This document shows positions 9,237 through 37,500 of a stretch of 64,000 nt of DNA, piece after piece. This DNA is from an uncultured delta proteobacterium (GTDB taxonomy: Bacteria; Desulfobacterota; Binatia; UBA9968): assembly GCA_963771465.1 (NCBI GenBank), contig CAVYTU010000013.1:160001-224000 (forward strand), read 5' to 3'. Made by a program: the position numbers and the translations under genes. How positions within the stretch are numbered: position 1 is the stretch's first letter; every line of letters starts with the position of its first letter. The notes under the pieces are model-generated. The model was not told where the DNA came from. It searched no databases and saw nothing but the letters and a program-made list of their open reading frames with translations.

Positions 9237-9932
9237 TTAGTCGCTGCTGGTACCACTCTTGCTCGAACCGCTCTTGCTGGAACCGCCCTTGCTTGAACCG
9301 CTCTCGCTTGGAACGCCCTCGCCGGGAATGCCCTCGCTCTTACTGGAATCACTCTTGGTGGAACTACTCTTGGTGGAACTACTTTTATTGGTATCGTTCG
9401 TGGTGGAACCGCTTTTGGTAGGACTGCTGGATGCGCCGGTTCCAGCCCCGTCGCGGCTAGTAGGGTCGCTTGCTGTTCCGCTGCCTGACGAACCCGCACC
9501 GGAGCTGCTACGGCTGGAACTGCCGGGAGTGGAACTGCTACCGGAGGAGAGCGTTACGCCCAATGCGCTCGCCGTGCTGCTGTCGAGCTGTCCGCTAGTC
9601 TGAATATTCTGCGCGCGTTGGAAAGCCCGCAATGCTTGCTGTGTCCGAGGGCCGATGACTCCATCGACCGGTCCAGGATTATGTCCCTTTCCTTTTAAAG
9701 CTTCCTGAACACTTCGCACATCTTCCTGCGACCATTGACCGTTCATCGAAGACCTTCCCATTGAATCGGTGCTGCTCCGCGCCGAAGAAGCATCCGATGG
9801 CCGTGGCCGTTGTTGGTTTTGTTCAGTCGACGGTCCTGAGGTTCCCGGTGAACTTTGAGACCATCCTACCACTGGGCTCAGTGTCAAAGCGCTAAAAACC
9901 ATCCCCGAAATAATCACGCTATTTTTTCTCAT
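9237..9932 (-). CDS. Secreted peptidoglycan-binding domain protein with Ser/Gly/Lys-rich tail
   Basis: Signal peptide, VRSVQEALKGKGHNPGPVDGVIGPRTQQALRAFQ (PG_binding_1); RBS aagggg before ATG 9932. Confidence 0.85.
   Translation of the reverse strand: MRKNSVIISGMVFSALTLSPVVGWSQSSPGTSGPSTEQNQQRPRPSDASSARSSTDSMGRSSMNGQWSQEDVRSVQEALKGKGHNPGPVDGVIGPRTQQALRAFQRAQNIQTSGQLDSSTASALGVTLSSGSSSTPGSSSRSSSGAGSSGSGTASDPTSRDGAGTGASSSPTKSGSTTNDTNKSSSTKSSSTKSDSSKSEGIPGEGVPSESGSSKGGSSKSGSSKSGTSSD
9256..9420. repeat. Degenerate 15-bp coding tandem repeat (5-aa units such as SSTKS/GSSKS)
   Basis: ctcttgctcgaaccg ctcttgctggaaccg cccttgcttgaaccg ... ctcttggtggaacta x2. Confidence 0.7.
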
Positions 9933-28495: not shown

Positions 28496-28510
28496 TGGCA
28501 TACACCTTGC
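28496..28510 (+). promoter_or_regulatory. sigma54-type -24/-12 promoter
   Basis: TGGCATACACCTTGC. Confidence 0.75.
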
Positions 28511-28556
28511 GTTAGTTATGTCTCTCGTAGACTTTCTATCTAAAAGGGGCGCCTTT

Positions 28557-29815: not shown

Positions 29816-30805
29816 ATGGCTTTTTCTTCTCGCGGGCAGAGTCAGCGTGCCGGCACGTTTGAAACTGACCGCAAACCGAACCAAGCTGTTCTCCGGCCAA
29901 AGTTAACGGCGCTCAGAGAGGTTTTCGAATTCGGCGGCCTTAGTTGGAAAGAGCTTGGTAGGCGGGTCATTGCCGGTGTTCAGAGGACCGACTGCTCTGG
30001 CTACGCCGCGGCGCTCGCTTACTATTTTTTATTTTCCTTGTTTCCCTTCCTGATATTTCTCACCGCGCTGCTGGCCTATTTGCCGCTCGGCGATTGGTTC
30101 GAACAGGTGATCGCCCTACTGGCGCGGTTCATGCCAGGCGCGGCTCTGGAGCTGGTGCGCGATTATCTAAGCGTTCTGCTTTCCCAACAGCGCGGTGGCT
30201 TACTGTCGTTCGGGATTCTAATCGCGCTCTGGACCGCCTCAAACGGAATGTCGGCGATATCGGGCGCTCTCAATCACGCCTACGGAGTGGAAGAGGGACG
30301 GCCGTTTTGGAAAGTGCGCGCTATGGCGATTCTGTTAACGGTCGGATTGTCGATCTTTCTCATCGCCTCGATCGTGTTGCTGATTTTTGGCCCGCAGATC
30401 GGCGGTTATATCGCCAATTGGATGGGACTGGGGACGGTGTTCGAAATCGGTTGGAATATCTTGCGCTGGCCGGTCATCTTGATCCTGGTTACGACCGCGA
30501 TCGCGGCGATTTATTACTTTGCCCCGGACGTCGAACAACAGTGGAAATGGATCGCTCCGGGTTCGCTGTTCGCGGTAATCCTGTGGACCATCCTTTCTTT
30601 GGGTTTTTCTTACTATGTGAATAATTTCGGCTCCTATGACAAAACCTACGGCAGTATCGGCGCGATCATCGTTATGCTCACATGGATGTACGCCAGCGGA
30701 TTCGTCATTCTCGTCGGCGGCGAAATCAATGCTGAGATCGAGCACGCGAGCGCGGGAGGCAAAAACCCTGGGGAGAAGCAGACGCCAGACAGCGTAATGG
30801 CATAA
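29816..30805 (+). CDS. YihY/BrkB family membrane protein
   Basis: AAALAYYFLFSLFP, YDKTYGSIGAIIVMLTWMY...GGEINAE. Confidence 0.9.
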   Translation: MAFSSRGQSQRAGTFETDRKPNQAVLRPKLTALREVFEFGGLSWKELGRRVIAGVQRTDCSGYAAALAYYFLFSLFPFLIFLTALLAYLPLGDWFEQVIALLARFMPGAALELVRDYLSVLLSQQRGGLLSFGILIALWTASNGMSAISGALNHAYGVEEGRPFWKVRAMAILLTVGLSIFLIASIVLLIFGPQIGGYIANWMGLGTVFEIGWNILRWPVILILVTTAIAAIYYFAPDVEQQWKWIAPGSLFAVILWTILSLGFSYYVNNFGSYDKTYGSIGAIIVMLTWMYASGFVILVGGEINAEIEHASAGGKNPGEKQTPDSVMA

Positions 30806-30931
30806 GTAATAGATTTGCTCTGGCTTCCTTAAATAAGATGAACAATGCCAATTTTTCTAGTTTCCGCTTTTTAAATGCGCCGGGTGAGATTTGCGCTAAA
30901 TCCTATCGTTGACACGCCATCACTTGGTATC

Positions 30932-31023
30932 TGTCCTAAAACTGCAACAGCGCAATTGACTCAAGGCGGATTTCGCTCGGTTAACGTGCTTCTTTGGAGA
31001 CCCTTAGTGGGTATGCCCTTTGC
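30932..31023 (+). promoter_or_regulatory. UAS palindrome (30932-30949) plus sigma54-type promoter (31009-31023)
   Basis: TGTCCTAAAACTGCAACA and GGGTATGCCCTTTGC. Confidence 0.6.
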
Positions 31024-31090
31024 GATTAAATTTTTTTGAATAATAGCGTGTGCAATTTACCACATAGGCTAATTTGATTGGAGAAACGAC

Positions 31091-31762
31091 ATGCCGGAAT
31101 CAGTGACTCGCGAGGAAGTCCAAACGTTAGTGCATAATGGCGCGCAGTTGATCGACGTCTTGGGCGAGCGCCAGTACGCCGAAGCCCATTTAACCGGCGC
31201 GATCAATATTCCGTTGGCGCATCTCGATCACAAAAGCACCGCGGAGGTCACCCACGAACGGCCGGTGATCGTGTATTGCCATGACCTTCAATGAGACTTG
31301 AGCGCGCGGGCCGCGTGGCGGCTCGAAAGTTTGGATTTCGAAAATGTGTGCGACTACGTTGCCGGAAAGCAGGATTGGCTAGCTTATGGGCTGCCGATCG
31401 AAGGCGAATTAGCTGAAGCGGTGACCGCCGGCCAGTTAGCGCTTCGTGAGGTGCCCGTCTGTCGCCTCGAAGACAAATTGTCTGCATTGGCGCAGCGGTT
31501 GCGCCCCAGCGCCTGGAATCAATGCGTCGTCGTTAACGAGGCGGGGATCGTTCTTGGACTATTGCGCAAATCGATGTGGGAAGGCGCGACCAACGATGTG
31601 ACGGCGGAACAGGTGATGGAATCGGCACCGATTACCTTCCGTCCTCACCTACGACGCGACGAAATAATTGCCGACATGGAAAAAAAGAAAATGGAATCCG
31701 CCTTGGTGACTACGCCGGATGGAAAATTACTGGGATTACTGCGGCGTGAAGCAACAGTTTGA
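31091..31762 (+). CDS. Rhodanese-CBS protein with in-frame TGA at 31292-31294 (candidate selenocysteine)
   Basis: ORFs 31091..31294 and 31298..31762 share a frame and the rhodanese domain spans the stop: VIVYCHDLQ*DLSARAAWRLESLDFENVCDYVAGKQDW. Confidence 0.8.
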
Positions 31763-31867
31763 ACGGTCGTATCTCTCAACGCGGAAGCACCTCGGTGAAC
31801 GCCTCAGAACGCGCGTCGCATTTTACTTTAAGAAAATCGCCCCATCCAAGTCGGGAAAGAAAGGAAC

Positions 31868-32251
31868 ATGAACATGCTGGGAAACATCGACGCATGCGCT
31901 AACTTGGCGGTCAAGGATTTGACTGCGGCGCGGAATTTTTACGAAGGCACACTGGGACTGACCCAGATCGGGTCTGAAGGCGATGAGCTGGTCGTCTATC
32001 GCAGCGGCAAGACGACGCTCAACGTTTATACCTCGCAGGAGGCTGGGACCAACAAGGCGACTGCGGTCACCTGGGCGGTTGGCGACCAGGTCGAGGATAT
32101 CGTGCGGGCGCTGAAGGCGAAGGGCGTCGCTTTCGAGCATTACGACATGCCGGACACGACGCTCCAGGGTGACGTCCACGTCGCCGGCGACATCAAGGTC
32201 GCCTGGTTCAAAGATCCCGACGGCAACATCCTCAACATCATCAATCGATAA
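31868..32251 (+). CDS. VOC/glyoxalase family protein
   Basis: LAVKDLTAARNFYEGTLGL...AWFKDPDGNILNI. Confidence 0.9.
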   Translation: MNMLGNIDACANLAVKDLTAARNFYEGTLGLTQIGSEGDELVVYRSGKTTLNVYTSQEAGTNKATAVTWAVGDQVEDIVRALKAKGVAFEHYDMPDTTLQGDVHVAGDIKVAWFKDPDGNILNIINR

Positions 32252-32662: not shown

Positions 32663-35600
32663 TTATTTCTTTTCTTTGCCGTCGATGATGCGTTGCAGTC
32701 GATCGTGATCGATGGGCTTGACGAGATGATAGTCGAAACCGGCGGCGCTCGATTGCTCGCGGTCTTCATCGCGGCCCCAGCCGGTTTGCGCAATCAAAAT
32801 AGTTTTATCAAAGCGCGGCTGCGCGCGTATCTGACGGGCCACATCGTGGCCGCTCATGCCGCGCGGCAGACCGAGATCGATGAGCGCGAAGTCGGGAACG
32901 AAGTCCGCCAATAGGGCCAGCGCACTCGGGCCATCGGCAGCGGTTTTGACTTCATGGCCGCTGAATTCCAGCAGCAGGCAGAGCGACGTGGCCTGCATCT
33001 TGTTGTCGTCGACGACGAGAAGTTTTTTGCGCGCCTGCGTCGCCCCAGGTTTAGCTTGGGCATCCACTTTCGATTCCTCCTGAGGCGCTTGCGCCATCAG
33101 CGGCAGCCGCACGCTGAATACGCTGCCGCGATTGACGCCTTCGCTGTGCGCCTGGACGCTGCCGCCGTGCAACTCGACCAGGCTTTTGACCAGAGTGAGA
33201 CCGATGCCGAGGCCGCCGCTGTCCGTGGCGCGCTCTCCCTGGGAAAACATCTCAAATACCCGGCGCAATAATGCTTTAGACATACCCACGCCGTTGTCGC
33301 TTACGCTGACGCAGACTTGGTTATTTTCCAGTTGCGCCGCTATGCGGATGTCACCGCCCGGATTGGTAAATTTGGCCGCGTTAATCAGCAAATTTGAAAA
33401 TACTTGGCTGAGCCGGACGCGGTCGGCCTCCACCCAGAGGTCGTCGGCGGGCAAAGCTACTTGCAACTTATGATTTTTCTCATCGACGAAGGGTTGGCTG
33501 GCTTCGATGGCTTCTTGGATAATGGTTGCCAGCTTGAGCGGCTGCTTGCGCAAATCGAGCCGGTGTCGGGTCAGCCGGCTGACATCGAGGAGATCTTCCA
33601 ACATGCGCGCCATCTGCTGCACTTCGCGGCCGATAATATTCAGGCTGGTGCTCTGCAAGTCCGGCATCGGCCGTGCCCAAGCGCAGAATCTCGACTGCGT
33701 TGCTGATCGGCGCCAAGGGATTGCGCAGCTCATGGGCGAGCAAAGCGACAAATTCATTTTTCTGCCGATCGGCTTCTTTGAGCTCTTCAATGCGATCTTG
33801 CAATGCTGCCGCGGTTCGCTTCTGCGCGGTGATATCGAAACAGACGCCGGTAAGATAGGCCGGCGCGCCCGCCGCATCGTGGAAAATTTTAGCCGTGGTC
33901 AAAAGCCAGCAGATCGAGCCGTTGGCGCGCAAAAAACGCAGCTCTTCGGTAAAACCGCCGGTGGTCAATGCCTGGCGGCGCGCGGCGCTCAGTTTTTCCC
34001 GATCGTCGGGGTGAATCGCGCTGAAAAATCCCTCGTCGGTAAGCGGTTGCGGCAGCACGCCGAGCAGCGCATGAATGCGATCGTCCCAATAGCACCGATC
34101 GGTCTTGAGATCGCAATACCAAGTCGCCAGCGAGCCGCCTTCGAGCGCCAGCCGCAAGCGCTCGTCTTTTTCGCGCAGCGCTTGCTCGGCGCTCTTAATA
34201 TCCGTGATGTCGAAACTGGAGCCGACGTAGCCGAGAAAATTGCCATCGGCGGAGAAGCGCGGCACGCCGAGAGACTTCATCCAGCGGTATTCGCCGTCAC
34301 GGCGGCGCATGCGGAAGTAGGCTTCGAACGGAGTGCGTTGGGCGACCGCGCCCGCATAGGTTTTCACATACGCTTCATGATCCTCCGGATGGAGGTAGCG
34401 CGACCAAATGTCGTCTTGCAACTCGGTTTCGCTGCCGGCGCCGACGAATTCTAAAAAAGCTCGGTTGACAAACTCATGACCGTTCGCGCCGGCAAGCCAG
34501 ATCAACACCGGCGCGGTGTCGGCGAGCAGGCGGAAACGCGCCTCGCTTTCGCGGATCGCTTCGGCGCTCTTTTTGATGTCGTCGATATCGATCAAAAGGA
34601 TCACCGCGCCTTCGATCTTGTGATCGGCGGTGCGGTAGGGATGAATGCGCAGGCGATGCCAGCGTCCCTCAAGGTCGCGCACTTCGCGCTCGCGCAGTTG
34701 CACCTGATTGATGACTTCATAGATCAAGTCGTCGAGATCGGCGATTTCGATATTGCTCTTCAAATCGGTGAGCGGCCGGCCGATGTCGTTGGCGCGCAGG
34801 TTAAACGCCCGGCGCGCGGCATCGGTGTAGCGCCGGATGCGCAGGTCGGGACCGACCATCACCATCGGAATCGCCATGCTCGCCAGCAGGTTCGATAAAT
34901 CGTTGTTGAGCAGGGTGAGGTCCGAATTGCGATTGTGCAGCTGCTCGTTGACCGTGGTCAGTTCTTCGTTGGTCGACTGCAACTCTTCTTTAGCGGTTTC
35001 CAACTCCTCGTTGGTGCTTTGCAACTCTTCGTTGCTCGACAGGGTCTCCTCATTGGCCGAGCGCAGCTCCTCGTTGGCGGCGTCCTGCTGCTCGAGCAGC
35101 GACTGCAAATATTCTTTGATCGCCGTCAGCTCGCGGCGCAGTTGCAGGACTTCGCGCTCCTCTTCGGGCTCGAAGCGGGCCTCGCGCCGTCGCCGTTGGT
35201 CTCCTGGGTTTTTTCCGGCGCGGCGATTTCATCGAACATAACCAAGAAACAGGTTTCGCGGCTCGCCGGCGGCCGCACCGGCACCACTTCAAGATTGACG
35301 CTGCGGCTGTCGCCGTCGACGCGCACGCGCAGTCCTTCGCGGCGCACGGCGTGGTGTTGCTTGCGCGCCTCTTCGATGGCGCTGCGCAGTTCGAGGAACA
35401 AACCCTCGCGCGCCATTTTGAGCAAATTGTTGGTCGGCTCGCCCGGAGGCAGCTCCAAATAATTGCTGGTGCGGCCGCGAAACTGCACGATGTCGAGGTT
35501 GTCATTGACCAGCACGCCCGGCGGCGCGTAGCGCCCGAGCAGCATTCGGTCGGCTTCACGTTGGAAATCGGCCGGCGTCGAGCCCGGCGCCACGGCGCGT

Positions 35601-37305: not shown

Positions 37306-37429
37306 TGTCCCAATTCTAAGAAAGATATTTTGCAAAAAGTTGCGTTTGGGTAACAGCCTTATTTTTTCTATTCACCAATTGCCGCGCGTTGATCGTGGAT
37401 CGCGCCATTGCTGCTGGCACGAGCGTTGC
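37306..37429 (+). promoter_or_regulatory. UAS palindrome (37306-37323) plus sigma54-type promoter (37415-37429)
   Basis: TGTCCCAATTCTAAGAAA and perfect-consensus TGGCACGAGCGTTGC. Confidence 0.8.
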
Positions 37430-37500
37430 TCCACTCATTTCATACAGGGAAAATTAAAATCGCCGCCGTAAAACCGGCCGGGTAGGCAAGGAGGCATGCA

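Follow-up and report, generated by a model that had tools for sequence, protein, structure and literature searches.

Does an in-frame TGA interrupt or extend the rhodanese gene?

The locus at 31091-31762, on the plus strand of the DNA stretch that we analysed (hereafter the window, 64,000 nucleotides in all), raises the question of what a TGA codon means in the middle of a conserved domain: a dead gene, the boundary between two genes, or a codon read as selenocysteine (Sec). Starting from the ATG at 31091, 67 codons lead to a TGA at 31292-31294, after which the same frame is open as far as a second TGA at 31760-31762 (Table 1). The GGAG at 31080-31083 upstream of this ATG is kept in all seven close orthologues. 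The stretch around the internal stop reads V-I-V-Y-C-H-D-L-Q-*-D-L-S-A-R-A-A and, since the Rhodanese match of the read-through product covers residues 7-98, the TGA lies inside one domain. The initial annotation had described it as an in-frame TGA that interrupts the rhodanese active-site loop with no frameshift; the frame and the Pfam matches of the read-through product bear this description out.

Table 1. Coordinates of the features of the rhodanese-CBS locus in the window.
Feature	Position	Strand	Basis
Ribosome-binding site GGAGAAA	31080..31086	+	TGGAGA invariant in 7/7 close orthologues, shortly upstream of the ATG
Coding sequence, 223 residues + stop	31091..31762	+	Read through the internal TGA; terminal TGA at 31760-31762
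Rhodanese domain, residues 7-98	31109..31384	+	Pfam PF00581, 46.9 bits vs 22.2, E 3.9e-12
Cys63 codon TGC	31277..31279	+	Canonical rhodanese nucleophile position, end of strand 59-62
UGA read as selenocysteine (Sec68)	31292..31294	+	TGA in 156/160 and Cys codons in 4/160 loci; aligns with the second Sec of TsoB
Extended hairpin of the window copy	31293..31339	+	MFE fold; lower stem takes in part of the UGA
Spacer from UGA to SECIS upper helix, 12 nt	31295..31306	+	Sequence and alignment column numbering
SECIS core: 8-bp helix 31307-31314/31318-31325, apical loop GUG 31315-31317	31307..31325	+	99.0 % paired, 146 sequences
CBS pair (Bateman module), residues ~110-222	31418..31756	+	Pfam, secondary structure and Foldseek

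An AlphaFold2 model of the read-through product, built from a 31-row alignment, reached a mean pLDDT of 94.7 and a pTM of 0.85. In this model, strand 59-62 runs into a loop formed by residues 63-69 (C-H-D-L-Q-U-D), which is followed by helix 70-80, and a two-repeat CBS module begins at about residue 110. The first half is a rhodanese both by its Pfam score, which exceeds the gathering threshold, and by the presence of Cys63 following strand 59-62. In the CBS part, one repeat passes the Pfam threshold (PF00571, residues 173-219: 28.7 bits for a cut-off of 24, E 1.7e-06) and the other is recognised by fold alone, the modelled secondary structure consisting of two beta-alpha-beta-beta-alpha units; two cysteines of this part, Cys124 and Cys145, are conserved at 90 % or more. 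As modelled, Cys63 is at the canonical position of the rhodanese nucleophile and Sec68 at the far end of the seven-residue loop. The proposal of a CxxxxU motif joined to CBS domains was thus right, the motif being Cys63-x4-Sec68 and the CBS domains forming a pair. Translated in this way, the rhodanese-CBS selenoprotein is a cytoplasmic protein of 223 residues.

Gene callers annotate relatives of this locus as two genes and, read likewise, the window would encode a rhodanese fragment of 67 residues and a 'CBS protein' of 154 residues initiated at TTG 31298, the first in-frame start past the TGA in the list of open reading frames. Public protein data look at first sight as such a split would predict. 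Among the best 120 of 478 matches of a protein search, which were examined, the 22 best (69-98 % identity) are short proteins of 138-185 residues that match no more than 60-80 % of the query; four were aligned (P0002, P0008, P0019 and P0045) and begin M-S-P-R-A-A, just behind the TGA column, and some short matches bear the name 'CBS domain-containing protein'. Proteins that start behind the column are, however, the output expected of a gene caller that stops at the TGA. Moreover, the break would fall between the strand and the helix of a single rhodanese fold, across which the pLDDT is 92 or more. The second piece would begin mid-domain, TTG 31298 being two codons past the TGA and within the rhodanese domain, and no GGAGG-like stretch was seen by eye in the 18 bases that precede it, in agreement with the earlier remark that the downstream part starts mid-domain with no ribosome-binding site. 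Finally, the Cys-type relatives are single proteins, the full-length database entries measuring 221-260 residues at ~40-50 % identity. We consider two separate genes extremely unlikely.

The TGA is conserved across phyla

We analysed the codon at residue 68 in 160 homologous loci, made up of the best 80 relatives from one-genome-per-species contigs and the best 80 from metagenomes. Cys or TGA had been expected at this column, and this is what the alignment revealed: among these closest fetched loci, TGA occupies the column in 156 (77/80 genome loci and 79/80 metagenome loci) and a Cys codon, TGT or TGC, in the four others. As a Sec-type query was used and its top tblastn matches were taken, these numbers understate the share of Cys in the wider family. 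At residue 63, Cys is encoded in 157 loci, Ser in one and TGA in two. Position 68 is U or C in 160/160 loci, including the one with Ser at residue 63, and we therefore take residue 68 as essential and residue 63 as its partner. The two loci with TGA at residue 63 (L100 and L198) have TGA at both positions (Y-U-M-D-x-x-U-D-M-S), a possible U-x4-U pair like that of TsoB (see below), with a single hairpin for both codons.

In one-genome-per-species contigs, 352 relatives were confirmed by tblastn. They are labelled as Binatia and 'delta proteobacterium' MAGs (the closest), Chloroflexota, Actinomycetota and Rokubacteria/Methylomirabilota, and further as Eisenbacteria, Dormibacterota, Limnocylindria and Udaeobacter. 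Closer to the window, six of 40 related genomes contain a clear orthologue (E ≤ 1e-30). TGA stands exactly at the column in the same-genus orthologues of genomes G002, G004 and G019 (76 %, 69 % and 47 % identity, respectively), as well as in that of an unpublished genome, G005 (43 % identity), and the orthologue of G003, also of the same genus (76 % identity), has TGT at column 68 and Ser at residue 63. The orthologue of G011 (L026) contains one TGA within the match, column 68 of which was not placed by the motif search. Queried with the rhodanese half, 150 other genomes of the phylum sample gave no close orthologue, the best match being 38 % identical. The protein sequence is conserved on either side of the TGA, and full-length orthologues, 46-76 % identical, can be aligned over their entire length.

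This distribution bears on the possibility that the locus is a pseudogene, a rhodanese-CBS gene inactivated in the window genome when a sense codon, such as TGC or TGG, became a TGA stop. The window might seem a likely place for such an event: the initial annotation mentioned other disruptions in it, and the minus-strand region 32663-35108 looks like a frameshifted sensor kinase. Yet the same TGA is found in the 156 loci described above, which come from several phyla and many assemblies and have intact frames on both sides, and it is also found in independently assembled DNA and RNA contigs. Positions 31292-31294 are bridged by contigs of soil DNA runs X1 and X2 and of metatranscriptome runs X9 and X14, from four studies (records 1, 2, 17, 18, 9, 10 and 23), with zero differences at the codon and many nearby; the RNA contigs attest to presence in RNA libraries, which is not proof of transcription. 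Because independent contigs have no differing letter at the TGA, an assembly error is excluded, and the concern that reads might show TGC or TGT here was not confirmed. The chance that the locus is a pseudogene is practically negligible. For several contigs from other organisms, the alignment is confined to 31292 to ~31330, preceded by …VYC-x4, and such short alignments indicate a high conservation of the core formed by the TGA and the downstream hairpin.

A conserved hairpin lies 12 nt downstream of the TGA

In bacterial SECIS elements, the upper stem is located about 11-12 nt past the UGA, and the helix and GUG loop of the rhodanese-CBS genes fit this layout. The helix has the sequence CGRGCCGC / GCGGCUYG (alignment columns 22-29 with 33-40), and its pairing drops from the family-wide value given in Table 1 to 25-59 % of cells when the partner strand is slid by 1-3 columns. 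In the predicted fold, the gene thus has what defines a SECIS element, a hairpin just 3' of the UGA with a G in its apical loop. The initial annotation had announced a hairpin directly 3' of the TGA with G in the loop, and this part stands (GUG, 12 nt after the UGA); the exact pairing it gave does not, its inner stem GCGCG-GGC-CGCGT being unconserved, with the required 'CG' end of codon 72 in 68 of 147 relatives only. The hairpin resembles SECIS elements of the fdhF type, which are likewise located within the coding region immediately downstream of the UGA and carry G/U in the apical loop, and differs from them by a predicted loop of only three bases (GUG) and by having no evident bulged U. 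The decoding mechanism of the gene is probably of the ordinary bacterial type, with a standard bacterial SECIS.

Because no relative shows a gap in the region that follows the TGA, the codons that encode the helix could be tabulated (Table 2). We counted them in 147 distinct Sec-type sequences, one of which comes from the unpublished genome G005, and used the same genes outside this stretch as background. Five stem codons are fixed in 146-147 of the 147 sequences, for a background use of 36-44 %, and each frozen third position corresponds to an obligatory helix-pairing base or to the first base of the loop.

Table 2. Codon use in the SECIS stem of 147 distinct Sec-type sequences.
Residue	Codons observed	Background
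Arg73	CGA 77, CGG 59, AGG 8, AGA 3; CGC/CGT never; purine-ending 147/147	CGC 36 %
Ala74	GCC 147/147	GCC 44 %
Ala75	GCG 147/147	GCG 39 %
Residue 76	TGG (Trp) 137; otherwise Ala, GCG 9, GCT 1	not applicable
Arg77	CGG 146, CGT 1	CGG 36.5 %
Leu78	CTC 142, CTT 5, never CTG	CTC 41 %, CTG 36 %

In 139 of 146 genes, moreover, the real sequence gives a more stable fold than its synonymous resamples (mean of -23.0 vs -18.2 kcal/mol). For the window copy, the MFE of 31286-31350 is -21.4 kcal/mol, and the energy of its hairpin is not significant, neither against shuffles (z -1.21; 25 of 200 fold as well) nor against synonymous resamples, of which 81 in 1000 are equally stable; support for the hairpin is hence taken from the family-wide codon counts and not from this single copy. 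Among the 146 sequences, the upper helix shows no compensatory double change: four pairs never vary, two vary on one side and two depart only through unpaired cells. As no pair is altered on both sides, the support for the RNA structure consists of invariance at synonymous sites and not of covariation, and part of the nucleotide conservation is owed to the protein, since the amino acids RAAWRL are themselves conserved. The register of the lower stem of the extended hairpin is not conserved across the family. A lower helix, tried off by one column, was paired in 45.7 % of cells, and RNAalifold retains the upper stem only.

Two of the four distinct Cys-type sequences contain codons that break the stem and that none of the 147 Sec forms has, GCG at Ala74 in L070 and CGC at both Arg73 and Arg77 in L092; the two others, L041/G003 and L152, keep the helix. 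Loss of the Sec trait, tried as the cause of the Cys forms, gave a mixed picture: of the genomes with Cys forms, G003 and G193 (that of L092) encode SelA, and in G192 (that of L070), which may be incomplete, no SelA was detected.

A DNA pattern combining the TGA with the SECIS core matches at least 119 stretches in species-representative genomes. Among them is the genome of a cultured Micromonospora sp. (L237), which has SelA and in which the gene reads …VIVYCHDTAUDMSPRAAWRLE…. The pattern also occurs on a contig labelled as a MAG of the archaeon Candidatus Nitrosopolaris sp. (L268), an occurrence that may reflect bin contamination or transfer.

The genome encodes the machinery for Sec insertion

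The presence of Sec machinery in the genome had been proposed as a check on the locus, and the genes of this machinery were all found above their cut-offs. A tRNA-Sec is encoded on the same contig as the rhodanese-CBS gene (76.7 bits for a gathering score of 47), which ARAGORN also reports as tRNA-SeC with anticodon TCA. SelA (536.9 bits), SelB (358.6 bits, cut-off 242) and SelD (376.3 bits, cut-off 125) are encoded side by side on contig 14, at about 197.5-201.6 kb (L009, L011 and L019). The selD gene is itself a selenoprotein gene, with an in-frame TGA in K-A-A-G-U-A-A-K; the 65 nt past this TGA fold with a z of -2.08.

The UGA could also be recoded as something other than Sec, by read-through as Trp, Cys or Gly or through an altered genetic code. 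Near-cognate tRNAs can in principle read UGA, and the 23 full-length database proteins that were aligned have C at column 68 in 17 cases, R in one (P0059) and W in five (P0025, P0034, P0037, P0046 and P0051). The W forms are full-length metagenome proteins that match none of the 160 fetched loci; our guess is that a gene caller run on metagenomes translated TGA with code 4 in these cases. Several observations go against such a recoding: the gene's own stop is a TGA, its relatives come from standard-code phyla, the fetched DNA that lacks TGA at the column has Cys codons there while TGG occurs in 0/160 loci, and a conserved hairpin at SECIS distance coexists with a complete Sec machinery. Recoding to another residue is very unlikely. 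The in-frame TGA is almost certainly the selenocysteine codon of one rhodanese-CBS protein, and we put the probability that 31091-31762 is a genuine Sec-decoded selenoprotein gene at about 0.93.

Relation to known rhodanese selenoproteins

The decoding of UGA as Sec is textbook knowledge, and predictions of rhodanese-type selenoproteins date back to 2005; the mechanism is therefore unsurprising. Forms 1-3 of these proteins reportedly trace to Zhang & Gladyshev 2005. The family table of a 2026 review counts 119 prokaryotic selenoprotein families, of which five are rhodanese forms, namely form 1 (UxxS), form 2 (UxxG), form 3 (CxU, NF041203), form 4 (UxxG) and form 5 (TsoB, UxxxxU), the rhodanese-fold forms having been predicted by bioinformatics (PMC13188914). 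The word CBS is absent from main-text portions of this review and of the 2022 review PMC9312934, and the same portions of PMC13188914 make no mention of soil, Actinobacteria or Chloroflexi. Among the papers searched, none combines rhodanese, 'CBS domain' and selenocysteine or selenoprotein. No NCBIfam model was passed by the window protein; its best rhodanese-type scores were 31.6 bits with TsoB (cut-off 805) and 24.4 bits with NF041203 (cut-off 115).

The closest likeness in the loop is to TsoB (NF045694), which 11 of 151 same-phylum genomes encode. Its stretch …FYU-AGLA-U-VRSDSAARV…LGYKNVY aligns gap-free with …VYC-HDLQ-U-DLSARAAWRL…LDFENVC of the window protein and, the two loops being collinear, Sec68 corresponds to the second Sec of TsoB. 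In contrast, TsoB spans ~572 positions, resembles a rhodanese/DsbD fusion with a DsbD-like part and contains two Sec residues, whereas in the window protein the first position is Cys and a CBS pair replaces the membrane part. With a score so far below the cut-off of the model and no DsbD-like part, the window protein is not a TsoB, the position in the loop alone being common to both. A Cx4U rhodanese loop also exists in another architecture, in the 460-474-residue products of L330 and L332 (…VVYCEGPRUALTP…), encoded in two complete 1.8-Mb genomes of the phylum (G109 and G070). Given the loops of TsoB and of these two proteins, the position of the Sec is therefore not new.

The other catalogued forms are more distant. 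NF041203 (form 3, LYCAU) has its Sec two residues after the Cys, as against five in the window protein, so that the motif is CxU vs Cx4U and the window protein falls outside this family. Forms 2 and 4 differ by their UxxG motif, and form 1 (WP_010941598.1), compared by motif only, has a UxxS that is compatible with the U-D-L-S of the window protein. Among solved structures, the best match in both sequence and fold is BH2092 of Bacillus halodurans, a structural-genomics rhodanese (PDB 3NHV and 3O3W): 3NHV matches the N-terminal half with an E of 1.4e-06 and an rmsd of 1.3 A over 107 columns, at 23-24 % identity. The loop of BH2092, YCWGPACNGATKAA, is of equal length, aligns gap-free and has Cys at both positions; the protein differs by this Cys instead of Sec and by having no CBS pair. 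The C-terminal half is matched by fold by the CBS pairs of the MgtE cytosolic domain, AcuB and CBSX1, stand-alone or fused (Foldseek E 1e-9 to 2e-7, rmsd 1.9-2.8 A, identity 12-20 %).

The CBS-fused, single-Sec family appears to be uncatalogued, with form 1 compared at the level of its motif. The window gene is a new and widely mis-annotated member of the rhodanese-type selenoproteins, with a function that we infer. Somewhat more boldly, we lean towards regarding the family as an uncatalogued sixth rhodanese-selenoprotein form, a CBS-regulated Cys-x4-Sec enzyme with Sec in ~97 % of the closest members. Its carriers would be aerobic soil phyla (among them Actinomycetota, Chloroflexota, Binatia, Methylomirabilota and Dormibacterota, and one cultured Micromonospora), and public annotation would systematically split it into a 'rhodanese' of 67 residues and a 'CBS protein' of 150. 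In that case, it may rank among the commonest selenoproteins of soil bacteria and would couple selenium redox chemistry to adenine-nucleotide sensing. The useful point is the scale of the mis-annotation, with the 352 relatives, the at least 119 stretches that match the pattern and nearest examined database proteins that amount to the second half of the gene. To our knowledge, few selenoproteins have been described in the phyla that carry the rhodanese-CBS family, which would add one to them and offers a very clean SECIS consensus. The Micromonospora sp. (L237) offers a cultured carrier with SelA for experiments.

Other rhodanese loci were noticed in the same genus. Eight of them (L028-L033, L038 and L040), in several genomes, combine a weakly related rhodanese domain with one in-frame TGA, and six of the eight have open frames of 357-418 residues; L034, in another genus of the order, encodes 167 residues, and L037 encodes 657 residues with no stop. 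The eight loci may represent a different rhodanese-containing selenoprotein. A loose motif search in L028, L029, L031 and L033 found nothing.

Proposed mechanism

By analogy with standard bacterial Sec decoding, a ribosome arriving at UGA 31292-31294 would encounter SelB and Sec-tRNA(Sec) held by the SECIS hairpin 12 nt downstream, and selenocysteine would be inserted in place of termination. In the folded protein, Sec68 may act as the primary nucleophile, which would take up sulfane sulfur or selenium or attack an oxidised substrate. Cys63 would then resolve the Sec68 adduct as a selenenylsulfide across the loop, and a thiol reductase would re-reduce this Cys63-Sec68 bond. The CBS pair might bind an adenosine ligand and tune or dimerise the enzyme. 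We offer this chemistry of Sec68, Cys63 and the CBS pair as a tentative scheme, which is rather less probable than not.

Promoter and neighbourhood

The gene had been placed under a sigma54-type stress promoter. No TGGCAC-N5-TTGCW site was detected on the plus strand in 30568-31487, even with up to three mismatches, and at this tolerance the sigma-54 scan returned 274 matches for 285 expected by chance. A GG-N10-GC-like stretch near 31020-31036 recurs in one of six other close orthologues (L121), and in four of the six the upstream region resembles the end of another gene, both points having been read by eye from one alignment. Neither the scan nor the upstream regions of the orthologues support the link to sigma-54. 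A sigma-70 scan found 0 sites in 30700-32000. Elsewhere on the plus strand, a match with two mismatches at 28496-28511, located 2.6 kb and two genes upstream of the rhodanese-CBS gene, may be the promoter that was meant, and a perfect match to TGGCAC-N5-TTGCW is present at 37415-37430. In 9248-9419 of the same strand, sigma-54-like partial matches (TGGAACCGCTCTTGCT and variants) recur exactly 15 nt apart, which points to a 15-nt tandem repeat.

In the window, the gene is preceded by one for a BrkB/YihY membrane protein and followed by genes for glyoxalase-fold and ABM proteins. Clustering of the open reading frames around 81 loci revealed no partner conserved in more than eight loci, and neither these loci nor the window neighbours give a hint of a pathway. 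Three larger clusters were discarded, as they consist mostly of alternative-frame open reading frames that overlap the gene itself (142/164, 25/28 and 17/18). On the minus strand of the region 32663-35108, two open reading frames overlap, at 33480-35108 (542 aa) and 32663-33877 (404 aa); one frame terminates with a HisKA-like stretch, and the ATPase part follows in the second. The two look like a single PAS/histidine-kinase/receiver gene interrupted by a frameshift, which would reflect an indel error or else a pseudogene.
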